Below, in pieces: positions 3,001 to 19,373 of a stretch of DNA of 64,000 bases; within the stretch, counting starts at the first letter, position 1, and the number at the start of each line of letters is the position of its first letter. Made by a program: the position numbers and the translations under genes. The notes beneath the pieces were generated by a model. It had not been told where the DNA came from. It was given only the letters and a program-made list of their open reading frames with translations, and did not search any database. Origin of the DNA: a virus (lineage: Duplodnaviria; Caudoviricetes); IMG/VR virus record IMGVR_UViG_3300034410_000463, positions 1 through 64,000 of that record; one strand, 5' to 3'.

Positions 3001-6000
3001 CGGTAGAATTTACTTTGATGATGATAATCACTGGGGCTTTAAATCACCAGATAACGAATGGCAGATTTACTTAGAAAGAAATGCTCGTACCATTCTTTAC
3101 TACAACGGTGGTCAGCAGGCTCGTACACAAAATGGTTACTTCGAAGCAAATAACCAGTTGCGTACTCCAATCTTCTATGATTCAAATGATACTAATTTCT
3201 ACGTAGATCCAAATGCTACTTCAAGATTGCGTGGATTAACAACAGTCGATATAATTACATCTCCAGGAATTACTGGTACCGCAGGTGCATTAAGATCTAG
3301 AGATAATAGAATAGTTGAGCCAAATGAAGATTCTGCAAGCCAAATGAAGTTTGGTTTCACATCTTGGGATAACAATAACACTGCTCCTTGGGCTGATTAC
3401 TTGCACCTAAGATCTTATGGAGATTCTTCGGGTGGTTCAGATAACCTTCTTATGTTTAAGAAGTCTGGTCGTGGAATGCGTTTATGGCAACAATCATTTA
3501 ATTCAGGCACTAGATATACTGCATACTCTAACATCGCAATATATAATGCTAATCCAGGCGGTGGTTCAAATGCATACTTCTACGCAAGTAGATACTATGA
3601 TTCAGATGATACTGGTTATTACTTAGATCCAAATAGTAACTCACGTATTAAGCATCTTAAAGTTGCTGCTACAAGTGCTAATGCAAGATATGACTTTGCT
3701 GCTCTTGAAGTTAGAGAACTTAACCATGCTGGTGCTCAAAGTGCTAATGCTCAAACTGCACCAAGAATTGGTTTCCACTGGGGTGGACGAGTTGCATCGC
3801 AAATTATGCTTGAAACAAATGGTGAGATCCAGATTAGAAACAATCCTGGTACTGGCTATGAAGATTTCAGAGCACAAATTGGTTACTTCCAAGGTGATGT
3901 AAGAGCTCCTCGTTATTACGATTCAAATAACACTACTTATTACGGTGACTTTGCAAGTACATCGATAATGCATACACTCGATGTTCGCTCTGAAGTTTAT
4001 AACGATGGTTGGTTCCGTAACGATACTGGCGGCCGCGGTTTATATAGTACACCATACGCTATGCATTGGATGGCGGTAAATAATACCACTTGGAGAGCAT
4101 ACGGCGGGCAGAGTTCTGTAAAAATAGAAATGAACACCTCTGGTAATAACAGAAGAGGTTCATTCTACGCAAACAACAGCAACGAAGTTGGTATTCTATC
4201 TCAAGACAATGGTTGGGCATTACAGGCTACTAACGGTAAAGTAGATTCGCATCATAACTTCTATGCTCCTATCATGTACGATAGAAATGATAGTAACTAC
4301 TATGTAGATCCTAATAGCACGTCACGAATGAACGTTGTTCGTGCTAATAAATTTACAAATGATGGTTCAGTTTCTTCTGACGATGGCTTTGGTATATATT
4401 GGAGTTCAGATCAATCACCAGCATACGCAATCTTTAGAGAATCTGGTGGTTGGTCTAACCCATACCCAGATATGCGTATTGCGAACCACACTGGTATTAA
4501 GATGGGTGCAAACGCTGGCTACAATGGTATGCGTTTCTACACTGACTATCAAATGGCCGGTCAGGTTATGTCGATTAACAACTCAGCTGATCCACTTGGT
4601 GGCGGTAACGTTTATGTTAATAATAACCTGCAAGCTGGTACATCGTTAAGAGCACCAATCTTCTACGATTCAAATAACACAGCTTATTACTTTAACGGAG
4701 CTAGCAAGTACAGCACAAGATTTGAAGGTGTTAATGCTAGAACTGAAGCATGGCTAGGAATGCCAGGTCATACTCGAAACAGTGGCCAAAACTACAGATC
4801 AAGACCGAACTTTACAGGTGATAGCAACTATTGGACAGGTTCCTTTGGTTGGGGTCGCCAAGATATGAACGTCGTTGGTACTTGGGGTTCGGGCTTCATT
4901 GATTCATGGTCTAATCCAGGCAACCAGCCTTCAGGTACATCTCACTGGGTTGGCATGCAAGCTTCTCACTATCGTAACTCTAATACTTCTGGTTATGGTT
5001 GGCAGTTAGTTGGTGGTCCAATTGAGAACTTAAGACTAAGAAGTTCTTGGTCAGGGTGGAGAGCATGGCGTACAGTTCCAGTACTTGATGTTAACAACGG
5101 CAATGGCGGTTCAATGTATGCTGGTCGTTATTACGATTCAAATAACACTGGTTACTACTGCGATCCATCATCGTTCTCTAACTTTAACACCGGTGTTCGT
5201 GCTACTGAGTTTTATGCTCGTAACTGGTTCCGTAATGATAGTTCTCGTGAAGGTATTTATAACGAAGGAACTGGTGTACATGCTTATTCATGGCAAGCCG
5301 GGTTTTACGCGATTACTGGTAACAACAACTCTGGTTCTATGCATCTACAGCTTAGAGCAGCCAATAACGGTACAATGTGTCGTTGGATGCACGGTGATAG
5401 AACTTGGGCAGGTGATCTTAACGCTGCTGGTCAATGGCAATTACAAACACGTCACCAAGATGGTTACTCACCATCTTTAAGATTCATTGAATCTAGTAAC
5501 GAATCTTGGACTGGTAACATTGGTAACGATGGTGGTAAGATTGAATATCACTCAAACCGTTTCTATATCGAAGCGGGTGGTAACTCAAACCGTATTGTTC
5601 AGTTCCGTCGTAATGGTTCTGATAGATCTTATATTGATAACAACGGCCTATACGTTGGTACAGCTACTTCAGCTCGCTGGGCTGACTTGGCAGAAAGATA
5701 TACTGCTGATGCAATCTATGAGAATGCAACTGTTTTAGGTGTTAACCTTGACGGTGATTCTGAAGCTACTCTATGGCAGCCAGGAATGCCTCTATTAGGT
5801 GTTATCTCTACTAACCCCGCTGTTCAAATGAATGATATGGGAATTGAACCAGGAAGTAACACTAAGAAAGCTAAAATGAATCCATTCATTGCTCTTAAAG
5901 GACGTATTCCAGTCTTAGTAGTTGGCGATGTTAAGAAAGGCCAATGGGTAATTCCAGCTGGTGACGGTAAGGCTAAGGGAGTGGACTACGGTACACCTGG

Positions 6001-6073
6001 TATAAATAGCTATGATATAATTGGTATCGCACTAAGCGATAGTGAAAATGGTGAGGTAGAGGTGAAAGTATAA
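2..6073 (+). CDS. Long modular tail fibre / receptor-binding protein with C-terminal intramolecular chaperone-like domain; 5' truncated
   Basis: Frame is open from base 2 (IWTGGTQRVNIDNNSADFSVNVYAPRYYDS...), so the gene starts upstream of the window. About 13 copies of an (A/S)PxFYDSNxTxYYxDPxSxS motif separate variable Gly/Asn/Ser/Trp/Tyr-rich blocks. The C-terminus (ARWADLAERY...GVISTNP...ALKGRIPVLVVGDVKKGQWV) resembles peptidase G2/IMC autocleaving chaperones. Confidence 0.85.
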   Translation: MWTGGTQRVNIDNNSADFSVNVYAPRYYDSNDNNYYVDPAEDSIMNSIILDDYVYHNGNTNSYFGWAANNNYKIFTNGAERFNLDNNSADFSVNVYAPRYYDSNDNLYYVDPATISYMNNISFGKPGNGTNTKGRFLSIEGNADSSGEGSARIFFAEHNSSTAAQDKYGMSLAYRGGSATVNSVTGQPVTLTGLSNGEWGLLGYNNSINGNWAMKGPRDSSYVQARGSFRAPIFYDSNNTAYYTDQASTSIHNIQRVNQLQVDVAGRYIDSPSGNYGTIKVEGDTGGWAGYAIRDDWVFMSNGTANAGIYNDTRNEWSLQAQDNSWTRLYANGVHQLSAQNGYGYAPTSMRSPIFYDHDDTTYFGDFASRSKLKTLELGNQGNLTGSGSYPLGIWHNNRYLAGMRNSGAGANYPWLVHDNYNYNGSGSKDAFIVHFNGLGDRLFLDEAGNMLITGEMSASNYNLSAGNENISLNPAYGVGKTELKLFDGAKYWEKRAIEALQGIENAPTGTTAEYVKSPDAPAPSSYVLRTSSYRTFYSDYIEVQPGEEIFGEMYVKRISGSGGLFYYGVERFDKDKKPIGGNTGTTYFTASAQNVTSTSWVKYTGYTTIPTTHTPYAGSDGGGVRYVRMRVLMNHSGGGALREFTPPILMRTKVPSRIRTDEAVYSPIYYDSNDTNFYLDPASTSKLNTVDASNFRDRDNTGRFMNPNSGGNVQGSWNWNNGSIENLNNLSFNDPGPQEGIRWKAGNEWKIYESPNDLATNGGGNLQFTSGSGAGTMRARIDSSGDLWAGRYARAQRFYDTNDAAYYVDPNGTSIQAAIELRTGGLKMARNYTDNAIWFNKGTDANHVLWNHYYGGPGARGAAGSGGFDGIKWNTYAGIHLQGGLSGAYNLAKFHTTGAGNGNAHYVQLYANNVEQLGTRGGYGYAPNSMRSPLFYDQDDTTYYGNFASTSRMNVINANMYSLNDGWDIYDDDSDTLTIRSNNGDHGEIIFRDSGSTNCGRIYFDDDNHWGFKSPDNEWQIYLERNARTILYYNGGQQARTQNGYFEANNQLRTPIFYDSNDTNFYVDPNATSRLRGLTTVDIITSPGITGTAGALRSRDNRIVEPNEDSASQMKFGFTSWDNNNTAPWADYLHLRSYGDSSGGSDNLLMFKKSGRGMRLWQQSFNSGTRYTAYSNIAIYNANPGGGSNAYFYASRYYDSDDTGYYLDPNSNSRIKHLKVAATSANARYDFAALEVRELNHAGAQSANAQTAPRIGFHWGGRVASQIMLETNGEIQIRNNPGTGYEDFRAQIGYFQGDVRAPRYYDSNNTTYYGDFASTSIMHTLDVRSEVYNDGWFRNDTGGRGLYSTPYAMHWMAVNNTTWRAYGGQSSVKIEMNTSGNNRRGSFYANNSNEVGILSQDNGWALQATNGKVDSHHNFYAPIMYDRNDSNYYVDPNSTSRMNVVRANKFTNDGSVSSDDGFGIYWSSDQSPAYAIFRESGGWSNPYPDMRIANHTGIKMGANAGYNGMRFYTDYQMAGQVMSINNSADPLGGGNVYVNNNLQAGTSLRAPIFYDSNNTAYYFNGASKYSTRFEGVNARTEAWLGMPGHTRNSGQNYRSRPNFTGDSNYWTGSFGWGRQDMNVVGTWGSGFIDSWSNPGNQPSGTSHWVGMQASHYRNSNTSGYGWQLVGGPIENLRLRSSWSGWRAWRTVPVLDVNNGNGGSMYAGRYYDSNNTGYYCDPSSFSNFNTGVRATEFYARNWFRNDSSREGIYNEGTGVHAYSWQAGFYAITGNNNSGSMHLQLRAANNGTMCRWMHGDRTWAGDLNAAGQWQLQTRHQDGYSPSLRFIESSNESWTGNIGNDGGKIEYHSNRFYIEAGGNSNRIVQFRRNGSDRSYIDNNGLYVGTATSARWADLAERYTADAIYENATVLGVNLDGDSEATLWQPGMPLLGVISTNPAVQMNDMGIEPGSNTKKAKMNPFIALKGRIPVLVVGDVKKGQWVIPAGDGKAKGVDYGTPGINSYDIIGIALSDSENGEVEVKV
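35..315 (+). repeat. Imperfect tandem duplication at the 5' end of the tail fibre (35-96 vs 254-315)
   Basis: gataataactctgctgatttctcagttaatgtctacgcacctcgttactatgattc vs gataacaactctgctgatttctcagtaaatgtttatgcacctcgttattacgattc; same peptide NNSADFSVNVYAPRYYDSND. Confidence 0.85.
698..4690 (+). repeat. Perfect 33-bp direct repeat within the tail fibre (698-730 and 4658-4690)
   Basis: atcttctacgattcaaataacacagcttattac is present twice; a second 27-bp pair (tatgattcaaatgatactaatttctac) lies at 2012-2038 and 3176-3202. Confidence 0.9.
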
Positions 6074-6074
6074 T

Positions 6075-6488
6075 ATGGCAACGTATGCACAATTAAATTC
6101 TAATGCGCAAACACAATGTGGACGGCAGCTCCGTACGTTTGATAAGACTATGGCTTTAACAGTTCAGACTTACACTAGAGGCCAATGGACTGGTGGGTCA
6201 GGATACAGATACCCAAGAACAGGCAGTAACAGTGTAGCTATTTCTAGAAATTATTATCACAGGTTTGAATATGTTAGCGCATCATATTCTGTATATAATG
6301 GTTATCTCGATGGCGGAATATACAGTGGTCAGCTTATACACGACGATGATGTATATAATACTATTTCTAGAGTTGTAAGAAGAACAGTAGATTTAATTGA
6401 AGGCAGAATGGGAACAAGAAACGTTAGTGCTCTTGTATGTCATTCTAGTTGCCACGGTTCTTGTCATTCATCAAGAGGTAGACGCTAA
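6075..6488 (+). CDS. Putative radical-SAM substrate / precursor protein A (C-terminal CHSSCHGSCHSSRGRR)
   Basis: Starts 2 nt after the tail fibre stop; paralogue of the next gene; period-4 Cys-His-x-Ser motif at 6438-6488; lies upstream of six rSAM genes. The CDS is secure; the function is inferred. Confidence 0.7.
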   Translation: MATYAQLNSNAQTQCGRQLRTFDKTMALTVQTYTRGQWTGGSGYRYPRTGSNSVAISRNYYHRFEYVSASYSVYNGYLDGGIYSGQLIHDDDVYNTISRVVRRTVDLIEGRMGTRNVSALVCHSSCHGSCHSSRGRR

Positions 6489-6892
6489 TGGTTATGGAGA
6501 GAAGAGACGTCAACTCGTGGGTTCAAACCTATGGTGGGGCGCAATTAAGAACATTTGATAGAACTGTTACATTTAGAATAACTACATACACGAGAAGTCA
6601 GCGTTTCTTTGGTAATAGCTCGGCAGGTGGTACCAGCTCTGTTACTACTGTAAATAGATACGCTCGATTTGAATATACAGGTGCATCTAATAGCATCTAT
6701 AATAACTATGTAGATTCTGGAATTAACGCCGGTAATGTAATTAATCCACAAGATATTGTGGATACGATGGAAGATTTAGTAAGAAGAACTGTTGACGTAA
6801 TAGAACCAAGAATAACTAACCGCACGGTGAATGCAAGAGTTTGTCACGGAAGTTGCCACCAAAACTGCCATTCATCACGAGGGAGAAGATAA
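6488..6892 (+). CDS. Putative radical-SAM substrate / precursor protein B (C-terminal CHGSCHQNCHSSRGRR)
   Basis: TAATG overlap with A; shares QLRTFDxT, TYTRxQ, RFEY, VRRTVDxIExR and the terminal Cys/His motif (6842-6892). Confidence 0.7.
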   Translation: MVMERRDVNSWVQTYGGAQLRTFDRTVTFRITTYTRSQRFFGNSSAGGTSSVTTVNRYARFEYTGASNSIYNNYVDSGINAGNVINPQDIVDTMEDLVRRTVDVIEPRITNRTVNARVCHGSCHQNCHSSRGRR

Positions 6893-6893
6893 A

Positions 6894-8069
6894 ATGACAA
6901 TGCAAAAATCATACTGTAAACAAATGAGATATTCTGGTCCAGAAAGTCTCGCTCCTAAAGATCAGGATAAGTTTGATGTACTTATTCAGATGGAAGTATT
7001 ATCGGGATGTGAACAGGCATGTTTAGGTTGTTTTGTTGATAAGAATATTGATCCTGGAATGAATCAACAGATTATTGATAGAGCGAAAGAATTAGCAGAT
7101 GGTGTTAAAAGAACTGGTCTTAATTTAAGAGAGTTTGTTATTGGACCAACCGATTTCTTTACGGCATCTAACACAGAATCTGTTTTAAATAACGAAACAG
7201 TTCAAGAAATTATGCGCGAACATACCGGCGCTCGTATTGCTGCTCCTGCAAAGTTTGATGTAGCAACTATGGAAAGGGTACAAGAAATATTTAATATTCT
7301 CGATGATGAAGATAAATTCCGTCGAGAAATGATTATCGAATTTATTATGCCAATCGGTAAAGTAGATCAAATGCTTAATGATATAGTTTATCACCAAGAA
7401 GTAATGCGAAAAGTAAAATTCTTCAAAGAAAATACTCCTAAGCAAATGGATTGGTCTTGGACTTTACAAGCATCTAATGTTGTTGGCAAGAAAATCGATA
7501 AAGAAACATATAATAAAATTATTCAAAAATCTGTTAATGAGTATGAAACAATTGTAGAAATGAATCCAGCTTTCTCAAGAGCAAATTCACAATTAGTACA
7601 AAGAAAGAATTTATTCGGATGGAACGAGTTCTTAGGTAGAGTTATTGATGAAGGTAACTCTAACGAGACAGTAATGTCAATGGCTAATCTGTATTGTAAC
7701 TCAATCAACTTTGTTGGTATTACAATTGTTCCAGGCGAAAACGGACCGACTACACACTTAAACGTAATGTTACATGAGCAAGCATTCTTCTTAAAGAATA
7801 AAAATCTTGATGTTACTGGTTTAACGTTTGAAGAAATCTTAGATAGAAAACACGAGCTTGTTACTAAAGGAATAAATAGATCAAGTAAAGTAAAAGATTG
7901 CAACGGTTGCCAATTCGCAGTAGCATGTGCAAACAGGTTAATATTCGAGGCACAGGAATCATTGAATATTGATGGTTGTGTTCTTAACAAAGATGTATTA
8001 GATCATTATAATCCATTCGACTTTACATGGAATGATGATGCACTTAAAAAATTAGGAGAGGCTTCATGA
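6894..8069 (+). CDS. Atypical radical SAM protein with C-terminal SPASM/twitch-like Cys cluster (paralogue 1)
   Basis: CEQACLGC (CxxxCxxC) and C-terminal CNGCQFAVAC...GC. Start moved from 6831 to ATG 6894, which follows a GGAG RBS and the precursor B stop. Confidence 0.8.
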   Translation: MTMQKSYCKQMRYSGPESLAPKDQDKFDVLIQMEVLSGCEQACLGCFVDKNIDPGMNQQIIDRAKELADGVKRTGLNLREFVIGPTDFFTASNTESVLNNETVQEIMREHTGARIAAPAKFDVATMERVQEIFNILDDEDKFRREMIIEFIMPIGKVDQMLNDIVYHQEVMRKVKFFKENTPKQMDWSWTLQASNVVGKKIDKETYNKIIQKSVNEYETIVEMNPAFSRANSQLVQRKNLFGWNEFLGRVIDEGNSNETVMSMANLYCNSINFVGITIVPGENGPTTHLNVMLHEQAFFLKNKNLDVTGLTFEEILDRKHELVTKGINRSSKVKDCNGCQFAVACANRLIFEAQESLNIDGCVLNKDVLDHYNPFDFTWNDDALKKLGEAS

Positions 8070-9169
8070 TTGGCCAAAGTTATTATTATTTAAATAACAA
8101 AAAATATTTGACAAATATCACTAACTGTGGTACAATTATTAGTGAGGTAAATAATTTCTATCACACTAAAACCCCACGCTCTATTAAAATTGTAGAACCA
8201 TCTGAAGAAGGACATCAACTTTTACCGAACCAACTTTTGGAAGAAGCAGAAGCTATGAGGACTGGTTCAACTGATTTGATTGAGTTTGTTGAATGGGAAG
8301 ATGCAAGTACTATAGAATTTATAGAAAACAGTGATAAGTGCATTGTTGCTTATACAGATGAAGCTGACATGTTGGATATATATGTTAGGTATACTCAAGG
8401 TCTATTAACGGCTTCTGGTTTTTATGCTGGTCACGAAACAAGCGTAGATCAAATCGCAGCAGAGTTTGTTACTAAGGTTTGTGAATCTGATTCTCTATTA
8501 ACAATCATGAATGATTCAACATTATTCCAAGATACTTTAGGATATTGTAATCAAATTTTAGCAGATGCAGATAAACCTGCATTTACTGTTCAATACGAAA
8601 ATGGTAAGAACTTTAGTTACGATTTGTTGTTCTTCTTAAATGATTATTATCCTTGTGATGCAGTAAGGTCTCTTATTATTGAAAAGTTCACAATACATTC
8701 TAGTGAAATTACTAGAGACATTATGGAACAATTTACGGGTATGCGTAGAGATTTAGCTTATATTTGTGCAGTAATTGATTGGATGAACGCAAACGCTACA
8801 GCAGAAAATAGATTAGCCACTGATAAAGCAGATTTTATCAATAGGGTTTTTGTAGAACCGCACACAGCAGAAAATAGAAATTGGACCGTTCCTTTCTATG
8901 CTCTTGCAGATTTATGGAATAAAGTAAAAGATAATGCAGATTTTAAAGCAGCCCACGCCGCGAAATCAGATGGTATTACGAGTTGGGAATATAATGATGA
9001 ATACAACGAACTCAATTATATGATTCCAATGACTAAAAAAATATTAGAACAAACTTGGGATATTAATAACCTATCAGCAGAATTAAAATTACTTGAAGCT
9101 GAAGTACAGTTTTTTGCTAAAAGACAAAATAGGATGCCGTATTTAATACACAAATACAGTTTAGTATAA
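8066..9169 (+). CDS. Hypothetical protein in rSAM cluster
   Basis: 367-aa ORF with ATGA overlap to the upstream rSAM gene; no motif recognised. Confidence 0.75.
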   Translation: MIGQSYYYLNNKKYLTNITNCGTIISEVNNFYHTKTPRSIKIVEPSEEGHQLLPNQLLEEAEAMRTGSTDLIEFVEWEDASTIEFIENSDKCIVAYTDEADMLDIYVRYTQGLLTASGFYAGHETSVDQIAAEFVTKVCESDSLLTIMNDSTLFQDTLGYCNQILADADKPAFTVQYENGKNFSYDLLFFLNDYYPCDAVRSLIIEKFTIHSSEITRDIMEQFTGMRRDLAYICAVIDWMNANATAENRLATDKADFINRVFVEPHTAENRNWTVPFYALADLWNKVKDNADFKAAHAAKSDGITSWEYNDEYNELNYMIPMTKKILEQTWDINNLSAELKLLEAEVQFFAKRQNRMPYLIHKYSLV

Positions 9170-9187
9170 TTTAAAGGTGATTATAGA

Positions 9188-10024
9188 ATGAGTAATGAAA
9201 CACACTTAGACGCAGAATTTGAAGTAGTTGACGAAGAAAACAAAGTTATTAGGCACGTAGTTACAGACGTTTCCGAAAAGAAATGCTATGCGCTGCCACT
9301 GTCTCCTCAAGATCTCGTAGCAATTTATAAAGAAAAAGGCGAAGACCCAGATAACAAATTTGTTTTGTGGGTAAACTATGCTGAGTCGAGATTAAAATTA
9401 TCTCCTGCGCATATTATGATATATCTTGCGAATACTAATTTCTACGCAACTTTTTCTGCAGTAGATGAAGATCTACTTGTTGAATATATTAAAACAGACT
9501 TTCTAGTAGATGCTCCTATCCTTGCAAGAATCCTTACAAACATTATCAAAACAAAATATGGCCATGAGTTATCAGAATTAGAAATGCAACTGTATAACCT
9601 ATTTGACGAAAATCAAATCGCTGAGTTTATTGAAAATCAAGGAGAATTGCTCGACGATCTCATTGAAAACATTAAAGGTCTTATTCCTTTTGTTCTTCAA
9701 CACGCGTGGGATAATTTAAGCGATGAAGATAAAAAGACACACTATGACTTAGAAACAACTTTAAATGATATTACTGCAGTCGATAAACCAACAAAGTGTG
9801 GCCCAAATGTTGCTATGCTAGTTCAATGTGTTTGGGATATGTTTCTTGTTATAACTACTTATGAAGGAATAAGCGATAAGTATAATACTAACTTATACAA
9901 TGATAAACCAAAGTATAATGGCGCTGACTTATTCCTCATGCTAAACAATACTAATGTTATTCCAAACGTTCTTAGCTTTTTGCCACCAGGACTGCTCTTA
10001 CCAGATATCGAAAATCCGGCATAA
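9188..10024 (+). CDS. Hypothetical acidic protein in rSAM cluster
   Basis: 278-aa ORF, AAGGTGA RBS-like sequence upstream, tightly packed in the operon. Confidence 0.75.
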   Translation: MSNETHLDAEFEVVDEENKVIRHVVTDVSEKKCYALPLSPQDLVAIYKEKGEDPDNKFVLWVNYAESRLKLSPAHIMIYLANTNFYATFSAVDEDLLVEYIKTDFLVDAPILARILTNIIKTKYGHELSELEMQLYNLFDENQIAEFIENQGELLDDLIENIKGLIPFVLQHAWDNLSDEDKKTHYDLETTLNDITAVDKPTKCGPNVAMLVQCVWDMFLVITTYEGISDKYNTNLYNDKPKYNGADLFLMLNNTNVIPNVLSFLPPGLLLPDIENPA

Positions 10025-10029
10025 GTCTA

Positions 10030-11193
10030 ATGTCCATAATAAAGAATAATCTTTATCATGCGCTCACCACGGAAACAAAAACAAAACCAGTTTCAGCAGT
10101 AAAGTTACAACTAGATGTTCTTGATGGGTGCAAACACAAGTGCCCTGGTTGTTTTGTCCATCGCAGGGGAAACGCAAGCGACGAGCACCAATTTAAAGAT
10201 GCAATAAAATTTGTAGATGATATATCATCTCGTGGTATATTAATAGATGAAATTATTATTGGTCCAACTGATTTCTTATCTTCAGAAAACTTCTATGATG
10301 TAATGCCTCATTTGGTTGATATGATCAATGAGCATTCTCCAATACTTGCTTTTATAACAACTTTAATAGATGATAAGCTTGAGCCGTGGGTTAAATGGCT
10401 TGGTAAAAATATTAACTTAAATACTGAAATTGAAATAGGGATTGCAATTGATCCTTTTAAGTTTCAAAATCAAATTAATTACGCAGAAAACATTAAACGC
10501 AAGCTCAAATATATTAGTGATAATGTAGAACACGACGTCGTATATACATTTTTACTTAATATTAAAGACTATGGTTTAGATTATAAAAATTTGCACGATC
10601 AAGCAGTAAAAGAATTTACTACAACCATAGACTTTATCCCTTCAGTATCTCGATCAGCCAAACCTCATGTTACGCTCGCAACTATTGATAAGTTCAACGA
10701 ATATTTTGATATATTAGCGGCTGGAACACGAATTAATAATATTATGGTCGATCATTCACACGCTGGCATGAACTACACCGTTTTAAATTACAAGAAAGGC
10801 AATTGGTGGTTATCTCCATTCTTATATGAAAACATGGTCGTTGAAGATGATATATTTAAAATAGAATCATTTGATGATGTAGAACCAATCATGTCGTCAC
10901 AATTTAACAGAGCAAAAGGTACTGAGTGCGAAACCTGCCCAATGCTATTTTCCTGTTACAACCGAAAGATTATCCTATTAAGAGATTACCTTGGCGTAGA
11001 TCGCTGTATCGCACCTAAGGAAAATATGATAAATAATCTTTTTAACTACGACTCTGCTGCTAAAGAAATGTATAACTGGTCTGAATATACGCCAGAAGCT
11101 GATAAGAACGGATATCGTAAGAAGTTTACATTAGCTGATGACACCGATCAAGAAGAACTCGATAGAATAAAAGACATCTTTTTCACAAATTAA
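10030..11193 (+). CDS. Atypical radical SAM protein with C-terminal SPASM/twitch-like Cys cluster (paralogue 2)
   Basis: CKHKCPGC motif, IGPTDF shared with the 6894 gene, C-terminal CETCPMLFSC...C. Confidence 0.8.
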   Translation: MSIIKNNLYHALTTETKTKPVSAVKLQLDVLDGCKHKCPGCFVHRRGNASDEHQFKDAIKFVDDISSRGILIDEIIIGPTDFLSSENFYDVMPHLVDMINEHSPILAFITTLIDDKLEPWVKWLGKNINLNTEIEIGIAIDPFKFQNQINYAENIKRKLKYISDNVEHDVVYTFLLNIKDYGLDYKNLHDQAVKEFTTTIDFIPSVSRSAKPHVTLATIDKFNEYFDILAAGTRINNIMVDHSHAGMNYTVLNYKKGNWWLSPFLYENMVVEDDIFKIESFDDVEPIMSSQFNRAKGTECETCPMLFSCYNRKIILLRDYLGVDRCIAPKENMINNLFNYDSAAKEMYNWSEYTPEADKNGYRKKFTLADDTDQEELDRIKDIFFTN

Positions 11194-11196
11194 CTG

Positions 11197-11225
11197 TTTA
11201 CATTCCTTAAATTCTATGTTATAAT
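11197..11225 (+). promoter_or_regulatory. Sigma70-type promoter with extended -10 inside the rSAM cluster
   Basis: TTTACA-N17-TATAAT with TG at the extended -10 position, in the only intergenic gap of the cluster; GGAG RBS precedes ATG 11249. Confidence 0.7.
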
Positions 11226-11248
11226 ATAAATTATGATGGAGTAGTGCA

Positions 11249-11728
11249 ATGAACTTTTTAGAGTTTGAAGATTTTGTATTGAGCGAACAATGCTACAATA
11301 ACCACGACGTCTCATATATAGACTCAAAGGGTTTGCAGCATTATTTGTTCTACGATTCATTTTGGGAATACCAGCCCAAGATGTTAAGTCTGCTCATGAG
11401 CGACAATACGATTAAAGTCGAGCAGATGGAAAAGCATTATGGATATATAAATCAAACCGCTCATATTTTCTTTAATAAGACAAATGGGCCAACTTTTGAT
11501 GTTCATACAGATCCTGTAAAAGTTATCATAGAATGTTTAGATGGTACTAAGCATATGGAAATCGAAGGAAACGCAGTAGTATTGAAGCCCGGTGAGTCTG
11601 TAATAATACCGCCGAACACAGAGCACAGGGCACTAAATTATAAAAAGGCATTGATGGTGAGTTATGGCATTCGCGACACAGAAACACTTGATGGTTTACG
11701 TAAAAACAACGGAGACGTGCAATCTTAA
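11249..11728 (+). CDS. Cupin/JmjC-like Fe(II)/2OG oxygenase
   Basis: GPTFDVHTD (HxD) plus distal H in VLKPGESVIIPPNTEHRA, a typical cupin facial triad. Confidence 0.7.
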   Translation: MNFLEFEDFVLSEQCYNNHDVSYIDSKGLQHYLFYDSFWEYQPKMLSLLMSDNTIKVEQMEKHYGYINQTAHIFFNKTNGPTFDVHTDPVKVIIECLDGTKHMEIEGNAVVLKPGESVIIPPNTEHRALNYKKALMVSYGIRDTETLDGLRKNNGDVQS

Positions 11729-12698
11729 TTGCTCTCACTGTTTTACGTCAGGCAGCAAAGGTAGAAAAATATATTTTAAACCAAAGGAAACCGCTGATTG
11801 GTGTAATGGTTTAGATTCTGATACGTGCGATAAAGCTATACATTTTGAGTATCACGGTGGTGAACCGATGCTTGCTCCAATGGAAGATATTCTAGAGTTT
11901 TATAATATAACAAAAGAACATTGGGGTGATCGTTGTACTCATGGAATTACTTCCAATTTAGTATTTAAAATAAGAGACGAACATCTAAAATTCTTCGAAG
12001 AAAACATTGACTATATGGGTACTTCTTGGGATCCAAATATAAGATTTTCTAATGAGAAGCAAAGAAAACTTTGGGAAGATAATGTTAAGCTTTTAACTTC
12101 TCGTGGAATGAAAATTAAATGCTTTATTTCTGTATCTAAAGATGTTGTTAAAATGGATCCTCTTGAGATTGCTGATTATATGCATTCATTAGGTATATGG
12201 GATATTGCATACGAGCGTTTAACTCATAATGGTAACGCTACAATTAATCTTGATATATTCCCTCACAATCGAGAGCTCGATGATTTCTGGCTGCGCATGC
12301 ACGCAAGAACAAAAGGCCACCCAGTAAAAAATTCATTCCTAGAATCTGTATACGATAAATTTGATCACGGTGAAACGCGTAACGGAACATTCTGTAGAGA
12401 TTGTGAACAGAAGCTTCATACAATTAATGCCGACGGTACTATTGCTGGTTGTCCTAACTCTGCTCCTACAGATCATTATGGTCATATTAGCGAACCGGTT
12501 CCAAAGGTTCGTGGTTGTTATAAGCGTATGGAAATTATTGCTTCGGAATTACATGTGCGTGATATGAGATGCTATAGCTGTCCTGTATTCGATTTGTGTC
12601 ACTCTGACTGTCACCAATTGCAATGGATGGATGATGTATGTCCTGCTCCTAAGTCGTTAATGCTAAAGTTGGCGGAGGAAAAAAATTGGATCTCATAA
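11664..12698 (+). CDS. Radical SAM/SPASM domain protein
   Basis: CNLNCSHC, HGGEP, SPASM-like CRDC...GCP...CYSCPVFDLCHSDC...CP; the start may be ATG 11691. Confidence 0.9.
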   Translation: MAFATQKHLMVYVKTTETCNLNCSHCFTSGSKGRKIYFKPKETADWCNGLDSDTCDKAIHFEYHGGEPMLAPMEDILEFYNITKEHWGDRCTHGITSNLVFKIRDEHLKFFEENIDYMGTSWDPNIRFSNEKQRKLWEDNVKLLTSRGMKIKCFISVSKDVVKMDPLEIADYMHSLGIWDIAYERLTHNGNATINLDIFPHNRELDDFWLRMHARTKGHPVKNSFLESVYDKFDHGETRNGTFCRDCEQKLHTINADGTIAGCPNSAPTDHYGHISEPVPKVRGCYKRMEIIASELHVRDMRCYSCPVFDLCHSDCHQLQWMDDVCPAPKSLMLKLAEEKNWIS

Positions 12699-13753
12699 TT
12701 AAACCAACCGAAGCCTGCAACTTCAAATGTTCCTTTTGCTCTTCAACAGCGATCGATCCTGATAATGCGGGATTGCTTGATTTAGATTATATTTACAAAT
12801 TCTTAAAAAGATATCCTGATACAGAAACTATTATTGTAAACGGTGGTGATCCTCTAATGATTGATCCAAAATATTATTGGGATTTAATAGATCATTTAGA
12901 TGAGCATGGTTATAAGTCTTCTATTAGTTTTACTTCTAACCTTTGGCCATTTCTTGTAAAACCTGAAAAATGGAAAAAGCTATTTAACCACGAACGTATG
13001 GGTGTATGTACATCATTCCAATATGGTGGCGGTAGATTAAAAGGTGATTTCTCAGAATTTACTGAAGAAGATTTTTGGAAATGCTCAGACGCGATGTTAG
13101 AACACTGTGGATATAGGCCAGATTTTATTGCCGTTATTGTTGAAGAAAACTATGATAACGCAATTAAGAACGTAGAGCTTGCTAAGAAGATGGGTGTTGT
13201 GTGTAAATTAAATTATGCATTTGCATCGGGCGTACAAGACACTACGTTGCAGTTAAGTAAGATATATGAGCTGTACGTTAAAATAGAAGAAATGGGTCTT
13301 GGTGATTGGGAATATAATACTGTTCAAATGAGAAATAGGTTGAATGGTAATGCTACTACTTGTCCGCAAAATAGATTTTGTGATTCAGGTATTCGTGCGT
13401 TTAATCCTGGTGGTGACTATTATTCTTGTGGCTCATTTGCTGATGAAATGGATTATCCTATTAGCTTTAAAGAAGAAGTTGAAGAGCACGGCGAAACGCA
13501 ACTACCTTTAACAATGGATCCTAATATTCAATCAATGAAAATGGCTTGTTATACTTGTCCGATGTTTGAAATATGTAATGGTTGTAAAAAGACTATTCGT
13601 GATCATAAGAGACAAGGAATTGTGGAACAACATTGTAAGCACATGAAAACTTTAGCGCCACGCATATTAAAAATTAATGGCAAAGACGCAAGTTCAGTTA
13701 CGCCTTATGTTGACGAATCAGATCAAAATAAAATATCTGTCGCACAAATATGA
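12686..13753 (+). CDS. Radical SAM/SPASM domain protein
   Basis: IKPTEACNFKCSFC, NGGDP, C-terminal CP...C...SC...CYTCPMFEICNGC...C; TTG start behind GGAGG. Confidence 0.9.
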   Translation: MDLIIKPTEACNFKCSFCSSTAIDPDNAGLLDLDYIYKFLKRYPDTETIIVNGGDPLMIDPKYYWDLIDHLDEHGYKSSISFTSNLWPFLVKPEKWKKLFNHERMGVCTSFQYGGGRLKGDFSEFTEEDFWKCSDAMLEHCGYRPDFIAVIVEENYDNAIKNVELAKKMGVVCKLNYAFASGVQDTTLQLSKIYELYVKIEEMGLGDWEYNTVQMRNRLNGNATTCPQNRFCDSGIRAFNPGGDYYSCGSFADEMDYPISFKEEVEEHGETQLPLTMDPNIQSMKMACYTCPMFEICNGCKKTIRDHKRQGIVEQHCKHMKTLAPRILKINGKDASSVTPYVDESDQNKISVAQI

Positions 13754-14652
13754 ATATATCAATAAACCCTACATATTATTGTAACTTTCGTTGCGACTTT
13801 TGTTATCTAACCGAGGCTCAACTGGCTGATAGGAATAAGATTAGTCCTGAAAAATTAGATGAAGTACTCAGTAAAGTTACAGATCCAATAGACCATATTG
13901 ATTTATATGGTGGAGAAATATCTCTATTAACTGAAGAATATTTTTATGAAATAAAGAAAGTGATACGTAAGTACTATGACGGAAATATTAATATTAACAC
14001 TAATTTTAGTGCTTTGCCAAATTATTTTTATGATGACGATATTACTATTAGTGTGTCGTATGATTTTTCTGCTCGTGAAAAAGAGCAATTTGTTTTAAAT
14101 AACATGATGGCTTCGCAAAAGCCATTGTCTGTTTTAATTCTAGCATCTGAGAAGGTGTTAGCAACCGATGTAGAGTTCATGATCTTTACATTAAATATGT
14201 GTGCACAGGTACAGTCTGTAGAGATTAAACCCTACTCTACGAATCAGGCAAATGCTCACCCAGTGACACATCGAGACTTTGAAGAGCATATTAAGAAATG
14301 GATTGATGCAACAACAGAGAAAAGATTCCAATTTATAAACCAAGAGTTAATAGAAGATGCTCTTGATGGGAAGTACTCTGCGTTCAGCGACGACCACGTA
14401 TATATAACACCGAAGGGAAAGTTTGGCGTACTTGAATTTGATAAAGATGACCGAGAATATTTTAAAGAATATTCAACTTATCAAGAGTATAAACAATGGG
14501 CTGCACTTGAACCTATTAATAATGTATCTGATATATGCAGGGAATGTCCGTATTATGGCGGGTGTTTGACTGAACATTATAGATACGTAAAAGATTTAAA
14601 CAATAGTTGCAACGGATATAGGGGATTATTAGACTGGTATGATGGGAAATGA
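13750..14652 (+). CDS. Radical SAM protein with short C-terminal Cys cluster
   Basis: INPTYYCNFRCDFCY, YGGEI, C-terminal CRECPYYGGC...C. Confidence 0.88.
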   Translation: MNISINPTYYCNFRCDFCYLTEAQLADRNKISPEKLDEVLSKVTDPIDHIDLYGGEISLLTEEYFYEIKKVIRKYYDGNININTNFSALPNYFYDDDITISVSYDFSAREKEQFVLNNMMASQKPLSVLILASEKVLATDVEFMIFTLNMCAQVQSVEIKPYSTNQANAHPVTHRDFEEHIKKWIDATTEKRFQFINQELIEDALDGKYSAFSDDHVYITPKGKFGVLEFDKDDREYFKEYSTYQEYKQWAALEPINNVSDICRECPYYGGCLTEHYRYVKDLNNSCNGYRGLLDWYDGK

Positions 14653-14653
14653 T

Positions 14654-15049
14654 ATGAAAGACTGGAAAGCAAGCCAAATGGCGTTTCACACCGCTAACAA
14701 AAATTACAAGGACGATTTGACCGACGAGAAAATCGTTATTTCTGAAGATATCGTAGATGATGCACTCATGCATTTTGACCGATATATAGAAAACTGGGTT
14801 TATCCCGCAAAGTCATATGTAGTAGCAATATGCTATGCAAAATGGTTAGAACGAGACTTCGGAGAAGATTTCTACGATGTACTCGACGATGAGGAATTAT
14901 TGTTTGGAAATGATCCATACTTTGTTCCTTATTCAGAAGACGAACAAGTATATGATGCTATTTTAAGTGAACTCGATTTTCAGGAAGATCTAGGAATGGT
15001 TCCTGATATTTACGAGTATTATAGAGAGGAAATGTTTTTTGGGAGTTAA
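14654..15049 (+). CDS. Hypothetical acidic protein in rSAM cluster
   Basis: Asp/Glu/Tyr-rich ORF packed between two rSAM genes; likely start ATG 14654. Confidence 0.7.
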   Translation: MKDWKASQMAFHTANKNYKDDLTDEKIVISEDIVDDALMHFDRYIENWVYPAKSYVVAICYAKWLERDFGEDFYDVLDDEELLFGNDPYFVPYSEDEQVYDAILSELDFQEDLGMVPDIYEYYREEMFFGS

Positions 15050-15074
15050 ATTGACAGTAGGAGGCAATTTAATA

Positions 15075-16175
15075 ATGACCGATCGTCAGCAAAATAATGG
15101 GCTGGCGGTTGCGGCTGATCCTGCTGCTGATGAAGTGACTAAAATTATCCTTGAAGATAAACGTCCTGATATCGGTGAGATAGAGTTAACTCTATTTGAA
15201 AACTGTCATTTAAATTGTTTCTTTTGTCACCACGATAAACAATCAACAGTTGGTTTATCAAGAGAAGAAATATTTTCTAAACTCAGTCTCGTTGAAGACC
15301 ATTTAATTAAAATGAAAGGTCGAGCTGAGGTTGTTCAAATCAATATGGTCGGTGGAGAGTTATTCCAAGATAGAATATCTGAATGGGCTTATCCAGTTTA
15401 CTATGATTTCTTAATTGCTATTAAAGAATTATACGACAAATACGAACATAATATTAAAGTAGTATGGGTTACATCGTTTCAGTTTATTAAAAGAGAAGCA
15501 GTACAAAAGCTTATCGACGATTTAAACGCAGCCGATATTCCATCTTATATCATATGTTCATATGACTTTGATGGTAGACCTGTTAAAGGACCATATGGTA
15601 AGAATATAGAATACTTTGCAGATTATATTACATCGATTAATATGGTTGCAACTGTACCTTCTATTGAAAAGTTTATGGAAGACAAGGACGAGTATTTCCA
15701 TTATCTATATGAGAAGTTTGATAATTTCTACTTTGATGATTATATTCCTGATAAAGGCTTTGATCATTTAATACCAAGCGATAGTTTATATCTCGAGTTC
15801 TTAAAATTCGTATATCACAACTATCCTGATATTAATCCTATCAAAGATCTAATATATAAAGATAAGAACCATATGCATTGCTTGTCATTAAATAAGGTTA
15901 CGATCTTTCCAGATAATAGTACATCTAATTGTCGTTGGGATAGATATACTCCTGAAGATTTTAATACACCATTGCATAGAAAAGATAATGCGTCGATGAT
16001 GCAAGCTTATATGAATGAGCATGGTTGTTTATCATGTAGATGGTGGGATAAGTGTGGATTTAGATGTTATACACAATGGGACTGGAAAAATCGTGAACGT
16101 GATCTTCCTGATTGTATTATGAGAATGTGGTTTAATTATATGGAAAAAATAGAAAATGAAAAAAGTAAAGCTTGA
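15075..16175 (+). CDS. Radical SAM protein with C-terminal Cys cluster
   Basis: CHLNCFFC, VGGEL, C-terminal CLSCRWWDKCGFRC...C; AGGAGG RBS supports ATG 15075. Confidence 0.88.
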   Translation: MTDRQQNNGLAVAADPAADEVTKIILEDKRPDIGEIELTLFENCHLNCFFCHHDKQSTVGLSREEIFSKLSLVEDHLIKMKGRAEVVQINMVGGELFQDRISEWAYPVYYDFLIAIKELYDKYEHNIKVVWVTSFQFIKREAVQKLIDDLNAADIPSYIICSYDFDGRPVKGPYGKNIEYFADYITSINMVATVPSIEKFMEDKDEYFHYLYEKFDNFYFDDYIPDKGFDHLIPSDSLYLEFLKFVYHNYPDINPIKDLIYKDKNHMHCLSLNKVTIFPDNSTSNCRWDRYTPEDFNTPLHRKDNASMMQAYMNEHGCLSCRWWDKCGFRCYTQWDWKNRERDLPDCIMRMWFNYMEKIENEKSKA

Positions 16176-16860
16176 TTGCTATACATTTGATAAAAATTTA
16201 CTTACACTGCAGCCGATAGTAAATAAAGTTAATAATCCATCTTGGTGGAGCAAACTTAAGAAATATTATGAGCACTTCGATGTAAGATCAGGAATAAAAA
16301 CACCGGTTCCAACTGTTAAAGTATGTCCTGGCGTTGCTGAATATATACGTGATCCAATACATCTTAAATTATGGACTGATATTATTTTCAAAGTAAAGCC
16401 TGACGGTAGAGTAACTTTCGTTGCTCCTGATTTTCGTCAGCGCCAACACATGGACACCCACGCAAAGGAACAAACAGGAAAAGATTTATATCCAGGCAGA
16501 GCAACCGTAAAACTTGCAAATCCTTGGGTCGTGAAAGGATCCGACAGAACAAGATTTATGGTTACGGAAAACCATTATAATGAAGATTTAAGACAGCATG
16601 GAATTATGGTATCGCCAGGAATAATTAATTTTTATGATCAGCATTCACTTAATTTATTTTTAGTCTTTCCTTTGAAAGATGAAGAATATCAAGTTGAATT
16701 AAAATATGGAACTGTTCTAGCATCATTACACGCTATGACTGATAAGGAAGTTGTTGTAAATAATCATTATACAACACCAGACGAATATAACGATATGCAG
16801 AATATGTTTCCTAGTACATTTTTTGGTAGATATTATGCAAAAAGAAAGGTGACGAAATAA
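16156..16860 (+). CDS. Hypothetical protein
   Basis: 234-aa ORF overlapping the upstream gene and abutting the 2OG oxygenase; contains a KVCPG motif, function unknown. Confidence 0.7.
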   Translation: MKKVKLDCYTFDKNLLTLQPIVNKVNNPSWWSKLKKYYEHFDVRSGIKTPVPTVKVCPGVAEYIRDPIHLKLWTDIIFKVKPDGRVTFVAPDFRQRQHMDTHAKEQTGKDLYPGRATVKLANPWVVKGSDRTRFMVTENHYNEDLRQHGIMVSPGIINFYDQHSLNLFLVFPLKDEEYQVELKYGTVLASLHAMTDKEVVVNNHYTTPDEYNDMQNMFPSTFFGRYYAKRKVTK

Positions 16861-17427
16861 ATGGAATATAAAGATCTTTGGCCTACTGCGTTTGGCATGG
16901 GTAAATTTGAATGCCCTGAAATGCTAGATTATATTTTGACTAATTATGATTTAAATGATATGTCAAAAATGACTGAAGTTAATGGATTTAATCTATTTGA
17001 CCATGATCACCCAGCAATAGATACGTTTAAAAAGACGTGTATAGATAACTTTGATGAATACTTGCAGCGCAACTTAGGGAGACCTTTATCTGATTGGAGT
17101 GGCCACACCGTGAAGTCTTGGGTATCAGGGCATGGCTCAGGATATAATATGACTATACATAATCACGCAGGCGCTACTTTGTCTGCAGTGTACTATTTAC
17201 TAGCAGAGGAAAAACAATTTGGAGGAGAATGCGTATTCGATGATCCTAGAACAAATGCAAACCGAGGATATGACGAAAAGTTTAAGCCAATGTTTGAAAG
17301 ATTCACACATACGCCAGAAACTGGTGATTATTTAATATTTCCTAGCTTTACATATCATCACGTAAATCCCTATACTTCATCCTTACGGTTTTGTTTGCCT
17401 GTAGATTTGTTTCTAGACGATAACTAA
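16861..17427 (+). CDS. Putative 2OG-Fe(II) oxygenase (phage TIGR02466-like)
   Basis: IHNHAGATLSAVYYL and FPSFTYHHV motifs (HxH...H). Confidence 0.8.
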   Translation: MEYKDLWPTAFGMGKFECPEMLDYILTNYDLNDMSKMTEVNGFNLFDHDHPAIDTFKKTCIDNFDEYLQRNLGRPLSDWSGHTVKSWVSGHGSGYNMTIHNHAGATLSAVYYLLAEEKQFGGECVFDDPRTNANRGYDEKFKPMFERFTHTPETGDYLIFPSFTYHHVNPYTSSLRFCLPVDLFLDDN

Positions 17428-17431
17428 TTTA

Positions 17432-17439
17432 TATAAATA
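17432..17439 (+). promoter_or_regulatory. T4-type late promoter
   Basis: Exact intergenic TATAAATA. Confidence 0.75.
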
Positions 17440-17514: not shown

Positions 17515-17916
17515 ATGGCTCTTACACTAGAATATTCAGTTACTAGTCTTAAAGTAAAAGACGAAGTAAATGCTGATGGAGACACACTATCAAACGCAGT
17601 TGTACAAACATACTGGAAAGTTGTTGGTACTGACAATGGTGGAAACACTGCAGAATGGCAAGGTGCTACACCTTTTACTGCTGCTAATGTTCCTACTGGA
17701 AGCTTTACTGCTTTTGAAGACTTAACAGAAGAGACTGTCGTTGGATGGGTTCAAGCAATCGTTGATGGCGATGCTAGTTATAAAGAACACATTGAATCAC
17801 AATTGACTAAGCAAATTGAAGAAGAACTTACTACCGAACCTGCACTACCTTGGGCTGAAGATGTTACACCACCTCTCCCCGAAGATGCTGTTGACCCTGA
17901 AGAAGGCGGCGAGTAA
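17515..17916 (+). CDS. Small acidic tail-associated-type hypothetical protein
   Basis: GGAG RBS; VVQTYWKVVGTD...FTAFEDLTEETVVGWV; paralogue of the next gene. Confidence 0.7.
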   Translation: MALTLEYSVTSLKVKDEVNADGDTLSNAVVQTYWKVVGTDNGGNTAEWQGATPFTAANVPTGSFTAFEDLTEETVVGWVQAIVDGDASYKEHIESQLTKQIEEELTTEPALPWAEDVTPPLPEDAVDPEEGGE

Positions 17917-17945
17917 GTAATCAATTTTAATAAAGGATTCTTATC

Positions 17946-18272
17946 GTGAATTATACGTGGAAAATATCTAAGCTTGGCTTAACAGATAAACTCGGGACAG
18001 ATGATGTTCTGCTCGAGAATGCTATTGTTAATATCAAGTGGAAAAGAATCGCGACAGACGCAGATGGAATAAAAACAAGTTATGTTGGTAATACATCTTT
18101 AGATGCTGAAATGGCATCTTCAGATTTTATTGCGTTAAACGACGTAACCGCCGAGAATGTTACTAGTTGGCTTGAAGCAGCACTTACTGCTGCTGGCGTT
18201 GAAAACGTTGATAGAAAATTGGTAGCTAAAGTTGAACGAAAAAGGTTGCGTAATATCTCACCAAGCTGGTAG
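17946..18272 (+). CDS. Small tail-associated-type hypothetical protein
   Basis: GTG start after AAGGA; IVNIKWKRIATD...FIALNDVTAENVTSWL parallels the previous gene. Confidence 0.7.
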   Translation: MNYTWKISKLGLTDKLGTDDVLLENAIVNIKWKRIATDADGIKTSYVGNTSLDAEMASSDFIALNDVTAENVTSWLEAALTAAGVENVDRKLVAKVERKRLRNISPSW

Positions 18273-19369: not shown

Positions 19370-19373
19370 TCGT

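Follow-up and report, generated by a model that had tools for sequence, protein, structure and literature searches.

A small protein that is matured by a radical S-adenosylmethionine (SAM) enzyme and assembled whole into a larger complex is known from the case of QhpC, a small subunit whose cysteines are cross-linked by the radical-SAM/SPASM enzyme QhpD. Cross-links from His-C2 to C-beta on His-X-X motifs are installed by the triceptide synthases HaaB, HtkB and YhhB (PMC11499958). In turn, radical-SAM cassettes of marine T4-like and jumbo phages have been listed, and left unexplained, in a number of genome papers (PMC5332604, PMC7029224, PMC8066314, PMC11898562), and marine T4-like phages were reported to carry Fe-S assembly genes alongside many radical-SAM genes (PMC5332604). 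Here we describe such a cassette in a stretch of 64,000 nucleotides (nt) of viral DNA, positions 1 to 64,000 of the IMG/VR record IMGVR_UViG_3300034410_000463 (hereafter the window). It comprises 14 co-oriented genes without gaps on the + strand (6075-17427), directly behind a fibre-like open reading frame (ORF; 2..6073), and codes for two small paralogous proteins, A and B, six radical-SAM proteins with a CxxxCxxC motif (rSAM1 to rSAM6), a JmjC-like cupin, a 2-oxoglutarate (2OG)-Fe(II) oxygenase and four further proteins (unk1 to unk4). As the radical-SAM enzymes are present in nearly all loci with sufficient flanking sequence, they constitute with the small proteins a single conserved and dedicated system, and the radical-SAM cassettes of phages are now tied to a specific invariant protein tail. 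In the searchable literature neither the tail motif, nor the link between motif and enzymes, nor the copies in predatory bacteria are described, the cassette genes appearing there only as annotations.

With respect to the spread of the system, a degenerate DNA pattern for the tail was found in at least 119 IMG/VR contigs, at least 116 of which translate to the true C-terminal motif plus stop codon and which include T4-like as well as jumbo phages; the same pattern is present in 67 prokaryotic contigs, about 36 of them with a real motif protein. The motif gene adjoins radical-SAM homologues in most of these loci, and in nearly all of those where the flank suffices. When the window proteins were compared with the motif loci by tblastn, 83 of the 114 viral and 23 of the 36 genome loci carried rSAM3; the corresponding figures are 61 and 18 for rSAM6 and 36 and 16 for rSAM4, all of them lower bounds since many loci end short of the full flank. 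The commonest gene order in other phages is cupin, rSAM3, motif gene, and rSAM3 lies directly upstream of the motif gene in most of the other loci. The same radical-SAM genes stand beside the motif gene in marine T4-like phages, in the phiKZ-like phage RSL2, in the phages Atu_ph07, Phosso and pPa_SNUABM_DT01, and in Bdellovibrionota. With well over 100 independent loci showing it, the arrangement is not a product of chance. An earlier reading of the window made from its letters alone (the sequence-only reading) had proposed a dedicated pathway around the two small proteins and had asked for a synteny survey of the tail motif, naming motif proteins that occur widely without radical-SAM neighbours as the finding that would speak against it; the survey shows the opposite, and the enzymes adjoin the motif in nearly all loci with enough flank.

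The two small proteins share 49% identity and the common end C-H-x-x-C-H-x-x-C-H-S-S-R-G-R-R-stop, in agreement with the earlier description of two paralogues ending in a Cys/His/Ser repeat. The invariance of Cys, His and Arg among loci recovered by the DNA pattern is circular and was not used as evidence; instead, a profile built from marine relatives was searched against 1.84 billion representatives without imposing the motif. Of the 81 matches, 64 end exactly in CH..CH..CH..R.RR, the rest being mostly fragments or frameshifts, and the tail consensus of the family is CHxSCHxSCHxSR[G/S]RR-stop. At the tail positions that the DNA pattern had left free, the consensus Ser or Gly is found in 132, 120, 130 and 133 of 153 distinct tails. 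The tail serines are written with AGY as well as TCN codons, which argues for selection on the amino acid. Homologues in cultured phages (Ralstonia RSL2 gp068, Agrobacterium Atu_ph07 gp170, Pseudomonas pPa_SNUABM_DT01 and Sinorhizobium Phosso) are 178-306 aa long and only about 27% identical to A, but in all of them each Cys, His and Arg of the last 16 residues is retained. Across the family the motif proteins measure 125-310 aa, with a body that is conserved within lineages; in all loci fetched (n = 174, median 187 aa) none is fused to a fibre. An AlphaFold2 (AF2) model of B suggests a small helix-hairpin-helix body and a disordered tail, at low confidence (predicted local distance difference test score, pLDDT, 60), and the ESM Atlas yielded no usable match for B or unk3. 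A weak match of B to GPW_gp25/TssE (E ~0.01) was set aside; the matching 'EPR' is mostly 'EGR' across the family. Twin motif genes tend to accompany two genes of the rSAM1/2 family (7 of 11 versus 4 of 53 loci), an association that falls within one clade and is therefore not independent evidence.

The features of the cassette and its fibre-like neighbour in the window are:
2..6073, + strand: giant structural protein of fibre type, 1979 aa or more, ORF incomplete at the start of the window
6001..6008, + strand: T4-type late-promoter consensus TATAAATA, 67 nt upstream of gene A
6075..6488, + strand: tail-motif protein A, 137 aa, ends CHSSCHGSCHSSRGRR-stop; C-terminus matches PHROG 35144
6488..6892, + strand: tail-motif protein B, 134 aa, ends CHGSCHQNCHSSRGRR-stop; paralogue of A
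6894..8069, + strand: rSAM1, divergent radical-SAM protein with CEQACLGC and a C-terminal CxxCx5C...C cluster; PHROG 31457
8066..9169, + strand: unk1, 367 aa, function unassigned; close marine T4-like relatives only
9188..10024, + strand: unk2, 278 aa, function unassigned; close marine T4-like relatives only
10030..11193, + strand: rSAM2, divergent radical-SAM protein with CKHKCPGC and a C-terminal CxxCx5C...C cluster
11249..11728, + strand: cupin resembling JmjC proteins, probable Fe/2OG protein hydroxylase; H86, D88 and H126 invariant
11664..12698, + strand: rSAM3, radical-SAM/SPASM enzyme with CxxxCxxC, GGEP and the full 7-Cys SPASM pattern
12686..13753, + strand: rSAM4, radical-SAM enzyme whose C-terminal region has eight Cys in a near-SPASM arrangement
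13750..14652, + strand: rSAM5, radical-SAM enzyme with a twitch-like cluster of four Cys in the C-terminal part
14639..15049, + strand: unk3, 136 aa, conserved core accessory protein and partner of rSAM5; PHROG 20737 at 1e-40
15039..16175, + strand: rSAM6, radical-SAM/SPASM enzyme, start TTG 15039 or ATG 15075; PHROG 1802
16156..16860, + strand: unk4, 234 aa, function unassigned; PHROG 7084, close relatives only
16861..17427, + strand: 2OG-Fe(II) oxygenase (2OG-FeII_Oxy_5), Pfam 50.2 bits versus a cut-off of 27; PHROG 81

All cassette ORFs lie on the + strand, so that the almost gapless, co-oriented 11-kb run behind the tail fibre that had been read from the sequence is borne out. In addition to the copy in front of gene A, the next TATAAATA stands at 17432-17439, just past the last cassette gene, with zero copies between, and further copies precede, at short distance, the genes for the sheath and the major head protein; overall the motif is only modestly more frequent than by chance (13 observed, 8 expected).

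All six radical-SAM candidates have CxxxCxxC near the N-terminus and a C-terminal cysteine cluster, exactly as claimed from the sequence alone. The Pfam model Radical_SAM (PF04055, cut-off 29.5) is passed by rSAM4 (38.7 bits) and rSAM5 (34.2), with rSAM3 (22.9), rSAM2 (17.2) and rSAM6 (15.7) below the cut-off and no match for rSAM1, which yields only a weak match to Fer4_12; likewise, the SPASM model TIGR04085 (cut-off 27) gives 24.5 bits for rSAM3 and 21 for rSAM4. The hidden Markov model search suggested with the sequence-only reading therefore came out mixed, supporting the class for two of the enzymes, leaving the others and the SPASM model below the cut-off, and returning no PqqD match. 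In the family alignments, CxxxCxxC is invariant in rSAM3, rSAM4, rSAM5 and rSAM6, as is the SAM motif, in the form of GGEP (rSAM3), GGDP (rSAM4) or GGE (rSAM5 and rSAM6). When tested for the seven-Cys SPASM pattern (Cx9-15Gx4C ... Cx2Cx5Cx3C ... C), rSAM3 has C247, G258, C263, C303, C306, C312, C316 and C326 all invariant in 34 sequences, and in 65 sequences of rSAM6 the CxxxCxxC, the GGE and the same seven-Cys pattern are conserved. The rSAM4 family has Cx2Cx5Cx2C within a near-SPASM region of eight Cys, and the rSAM5 family has four Cys only, these clusters being invariant in the alignments as well.

The conserved core is made up of rSAM3, rSAM4, rSAM5 and rSAM6, their identity to the jumbo-phage copies being 38-42%, 54-60%, 40-53% and 29-35%, respectively, and no gene of the cassette is better conserved than rSAM4 (51-60% identical to the copies of jumbo phages and Bdellovibrionota). 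By comparison rSAM1 and rSAM2 are lineage-specific extras; they are paralogues of each other with weak family support and have relatives in RSL2, DT01 and Bdellovibrionota, rSAM1 matching RSL2 gp071 and pPa_SNUABM_DT01 00057/58. The nearest NCBIfam families (PapB, DynA, AmcB, anSME, DarE, HxsB/C, QhpD, GrrM and YhhB) are all peptide or protein maturases; the best matches of rSAM3 are PapB, DynA, AmcB and anSME, each far below its cut-off, and its profile aligns over the full length to the anSME structure 4k37 and partially to CteB in the PDB. A phmmer search of rSAM4, rSAM6 and the C-terminus of the fibre against PDB sequences returned nothing useful. Among the full-length matches of the cassette enzymes no family of the nucleotide or cofactor type was found, so the clustering with such families that had been named as a counter-observation is not seen, and the enzymes resemble SPASM peptide/protein maturases rather than nucleotide or cofactor enzymes. 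Since all scores lie far under the cut-offs of the characterised families, they represent new subfamilies. The sequence-only reading had also drawn a comparison with Campylobacter phages; no Campylobacter phage is among the tblastn matches of rSAM4.

The proposal of two oxygenases is supported for both genes. In the cupin the HxD...H triad (H86, D88, H126) is invariant in 48 sequences; it scores 35.1 bits with Cupin_2 (cut-off 27.2) and 20.9 with JmjC_2 (cut-off 22), and its homologue in Halobacteriovoraceae passes JmjC_2 at 32 bits. The JmjC-like class includes protein hydroxylases. The product of the last gene reaches 50.2 bits with 2OG-FeII_Oxy_5 (PF13759, gathering score 27) and has homologues in the cassettes of RSL2, DT01 and Halobacteriovoraceae; in RSL2 (L001) a dihydrofolate reductase gene (gp073) is inserted in the cassette between the rSAM6 homologue and a 2OG-like gene. 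Amongst the accessory proteins, unk3 is conserved in jumbo phages and Bdellovibrionota, and a functional link to rSAM5 is indicated by a 448-aa ORF in one viral contig (L119:10930-12276) in which the two are fused. Its AF2 model is confident (pLDDT 87.5), and the fold searches gave no match at E <= 0.001 in Foldseek against the PDB and a best Z of 3.6, with weak winged-helix rows, in the VIA wide search.

With respect to the virion, data are available for Atu_ph07, in which the homologue gp170 was detected in purified particles by electrospray ionisation tandem mass spectrometry with 8 unique peptides and 35% coverage (PMC6102473, Table S5). It was present in gel bands 1-9 with its peak in band 1, the top of the gel, far above its mass of about 32 kDa; gp176 was found in the virions as well, and the neighbouring radical-SAM enzymes and the cupin were not detected there (PMC6102473). 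The masses computed from the Atu_ph07 locus equal the values of the table exactly (31.89 kDa for gp170, and also 66.07 kDa). The earlier suggestion of a virion or fibre-tip component thus gains direct support from this proteome. A second virion proteome with a homologue was not found, the S13 paper containing no proteomics and the phiRP31 homologue not being identified.

In the window, the giant protein in front of the cassette matches a PHROG tail-fibre family at aa 1840-1947, near its C-terminus, and has no Pfam match. Its last ~140 aa recur beside the cassette in 59 of 114 viral loci (tblastn), and this C-terminal domain is also found in Atu_ph07 gp176 and Phosso 292; more generally, fibre-like genes recur beside the cassette in phages and in predators. 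Many copies of the repeat R-[AS]-P-I-F-Y-D-S-N-[DN]-T-x-[YF]-Y-x-D-P-x-x-T-S are spread lengthwise over the ORF (134-6073).

The window itself is part of a marine T4-like myovirus coding for neck proteins, large terminase, sheath, portal, scaffold and major head protein. As the 3.6-Mb metagenome assembly into which the window was binned (G000) contains three related T4-like phage contigs, C116, C48 (L013) and C81 (L014), each with the cassette, the window is a binned phage contig and not a bacterial chromosome. Megablast of the 11-kb region against GenBank phages gave zero matches. Right behind the cassette lie two tandem DUF7936 proteins (17515-18272), each preceded by or near TATAAATA, and such proteins accompany the cassette in a subset of the viral loci. 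Further downstream (18320-21361) there are glycan-type genes, namely an FkbM-like methyltransferase region and a cytidylyltransferase fused to a mannose-6-phosphate isomerase cupin, which fit the 'host recognition cluster' of pelagimyophages.

The cassette had been described as phage-encoded; in the sense of phage-specific this does not hold, as it is chromosomal in Bdellovibrionota. About 27 of the ~36 prokaryotic motif loci belong to this phylum, in four families, and some copies reside inside Mb-size contigs with housekeeping flanks. In Bacteriovoracaceae the cassette is located in a 2.84-Mb contig, flanked by genes for a DinG-like helicase, matrixin peptidases, LspA and a transposase, and encloses, in the interval from rSAM3 to the motif gene, the gene of a protein of 2355 aa (L212:2366-9433) that combines RCC1 repeats with a Big_2 domain. 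This giant was considered as a homologue of the fibre in the window, and on comparison no homology was found. In Halobacteriovoraceae the cassette is a compact 11 kb, complete in its enzymes and with unk3, the cupin and the 2OG oxygenase all present; its flanks are housekeeping genes, and a protein with a Peptidase_S74 domain (tailspike/fibre chaperone) directly adjoins it, S74-domain proteins being found beside the cassette in at least six more predator loci. In the rSAM4 tree the predator and the phage copies are split by one well-supported branch (98/92), and are therefore two old lineages rather than recent transfers. One contig from a metagenome-assembled genome (MAG) labelled 'Flavobacteriaceae' (L192, CAXPDR010000038.1) has an rSAM4 that groups inside the Bdellovibrionota clade and a 512-aa neighbour protein in common with Halobacteriovoraceae, and is probably mis-binned. 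Motif proteins with radical-SAM neighbours are also present in an isolate contig of Dysosmobacter segnis (L177; Firmicutes), in a 249-kb contig of a Bacilli MAG (L185) and in a Methanobacteriota MAG (L204).

Taken together, it appears moderately probable that the tail is cross-linked and oxidised by the cassette enzymes and that the mature protein joins the fibre or the virion. A and B would then be small proteins made late in infection, whose disordered invariant tail, (C-H-x-S)x3-R-G-R-R, may serve as the substrate of the co-encoded radical-SAM/SPASM enzymes, with the cupin and the 2OG oxygenase possibly acting on it as well. The tail is taken as the substrate because it is invariant while the bodies drift to about 27% identity, and because it is predicted to be disordered; SPASM-type maturation is suggested by the full SPASM Cys pattern of rSAM3 and rSAM6, which rSAM4 nearly has, and late expression by the T4-type late-promoter motifs that bracket the cassette and are lacking inside it. 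The enzymes would install intramolecular cross-links and oxidations, the candidate bonds being Cys thioethers as in ranthipeptides and QhpC, and three-residue cyclophanes from His-C2 to Ser-C-beta on the three H-x-S units, and the further candidate changes being oxidation of Cys or Ser, as by anSME, and hydroxylation of His or Arg by the JmjC-like enzyme. The matured protein would not be released as a small peptide but would become part of the virion, with an accessory role at the fibre or in the host-recognition apparatus, while the enzymes remain in the cell; for the phage of the window, we infer the association with the fibre.

A number of points weigh against this model. Modification of the tail has not been observed in any member of the family, and a tail with three Cys and three His might do no more than bind metal. 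Each enzyme scores far below the cut-off of every characterised family, so that the chemistry cannot be read from homology, and the family support for rSAM1 and rSAM2 is weak. In none of the 14 cassette proteins did a Pfam scan find a PqqD-like RiPP recognition element (RRE; RiPP, ribosomally synthesised and post-translationally modified peptide), and rSAM3, rSAM4 and rSAM5 begin at the cluster motif and therefore have no N-terminal domain. The evidence from virions concerns one distant homologue, and as the loading buffer is described without a reducing agent (PMC6102473), disulfides could explain the migration of gp170 at high mass.

Unlikely, yet to be taken seriously, is the alternative in which the tail stays unmodified and binds metal or Fe-S, the target of the enzymes being something else, for example the adjacent fibre or adhesin. 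The small protein could in this case be a metal-dependent structural piece, a metallochaperone, or a donor of electrons or clusters for the radical-SAM enzymes, which need a supply of Fe-S and a reductant, and the Fe-S assembly genes of marine T4-like phages (PMC5332604) would fit such a role. The regular spacing of three Cys and three His in the tail and the non-reducing gel, which could account for the migration of gp170, are in favour of this explanation, as is the constant proximity of giant fibre or adhesin genes that could be the true substrate. However, metal binding alone does not require the Ser, Gly and three Arg of the tail, which are conserved like Cys and His, and the tail is terminal and disordered like the substrates of maturases. 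In addition, the giant neighbours are not homologous between phages and predators whereas the small protein is, and a carrier is not expected as a virion protein.

Within the preferred model of a modified tail, a bolder version, which we regard as doubtful, assumes a radical-SAM-built 'warhead' of ancient origin that is common to phages and Bdellovibrio-like predators. The tail might then be linked covalently to the fibre by bonds other than disulfides, or cap the fibre tip in a redox- or metal-active form, and the matured tail would be needed to attach to or to breach the envelope of the prey. If true, this would be the first virion component matured by radical-SAM enzymes and an attack tool common to two kinds of predators of bacteria.

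The sequence-only reading had seen a RiPP-like cluster, of which the precursor-type gene beside maturases stands, and the RRE, leader peptidase and exporter were not found. A classical pathway, in which the modified tail would be cleaved from the protein and set free as a metallophore, antibiotic or peptide-derived cofactor as in the case of PQQ, mycofactocin or methanobactin, is rather improbable. An invariant C-terminal core behind a variable upstream region is typical of the cofactor-type precursors PqqA and MftA and is resembled by the motif proteins, and SPASM maturases accompanied by several tailoring oxygenases would suit such a pathway. However, family scans found no peptidase or exporter among the 14 cassette genes, and none is conserved across the loci; conservation within lineages extends to the protein body; and the cassette is part of a structural and host-recognition module under late-promoter motifs. 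As, moreover, the putative substrates have 125-310 aa and gp170 is kept whole in the virion (35% coverage), the cassette is not a classical RiPP cluster. That enzymes and small proteins are unrelated neighbours, the former devoted to nucleotide, cofactor or glycan chemistry and the latter to the fibre, is very improbable, as their co-occurrence in about 150 loci spans unrelated phage lineages and a bacterial phylum, with a constant gene set in changing surroundings, and no nucleotide- or cofactor-type family is among the full-length matches, even though glycan-related genes lie just downstream and the host-recognition clusters of pelagimyophages mix fibres, glycosyltransferases and radical-SAM cassettes (PMC7029224).

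The system is thus widespread (at least 116 viral contigs), present also in the chromosomes of predators, and linked to the virion in one cultured phage. If the tail is cross-linked, this would be post-translational radical chemistry on a structural protein of phages, possibly with new types of bonds on a Cys/His/Ser motif, and predation by phages and by bacteria would have a molecular feature in common. Cultured models are available in RSL2, RSF1, FLC6/8, S13, Atu_ph07, Phosso and pPa_SNUABM_DT01.

Amongst known systems, the likeness to the T2-type gp38 adhesin is one of position only, a small gene directly behind the distal fibre gene of a T4-like genome; similarity in Pfam, PHROG or NCBIfam was not found, and no enzymes accompany gp38. 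The His-Xaa-Ser system (HxsA/B/C/D), defined by bioinformatics, likewise combines a repeated His-x-Ser target with paired radical-SAM enzymes, and rSAM3 matches HxsB while rSAM4 and rSAM5 weakly match HxsC. However, scores are 18-31 bits overall (HxsB 31 versus a cut-off of 370, HxsC 24 versus 268), A and B match no HxsA model, and the period is 4 with Cys instead of 3. For the triceptide systems, the three H-x-S units fit the aromatic-X-X motif (PMC11499958) and there are weak matches to YhhB, GrrM and AmcB; in this comparison by sequence, YhhB and GrrM reach only 21-26 bits against cut-offs of 310-445, and a Cys precedes each unit.

The ranthipeptide/SCIFF maturases PapB and CteB resemble the present case by a target with Cys at period 4, PapB being the best NCBIfam match of rSAM3 over the full length (E 1e-11) and CteB being among its PDB matches. 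In contrast, the score with NF047865 is 44.7 bits versus 340, no N-terminal RRE was found on the cassette enzymes, and the putative substrate is a protein of 125-310 aa that is retained in a virion. As is proposed for the enzymes of the cassette, anSME, a SPASM enzyme, acts on a protein without an RRE, and its structure 4k37 is the one to which the rSAM3 profile aligns in full. The sulfatase site is C-x-P-x-R, and the last repeat of the tail, C-H-x-S-R, partly resembles it; however, TIGR03942 gives 37 bits versus 349, the cassette is without a sulfatase, and there is no Pro or Ala at position 3. Finally, the pair QhpD/QhpC differs by its target motif, by scores of 22 bits versus a cut-off of 453 and by its setting, the cassette having four to six radical-SAM enzymes plus oxygenases in phages and predators, but rSAM3 and rSAM6 weakly match its model TIGR03906, and it offers the same overall scheme of a small protein that is first matured and then assembled whole.

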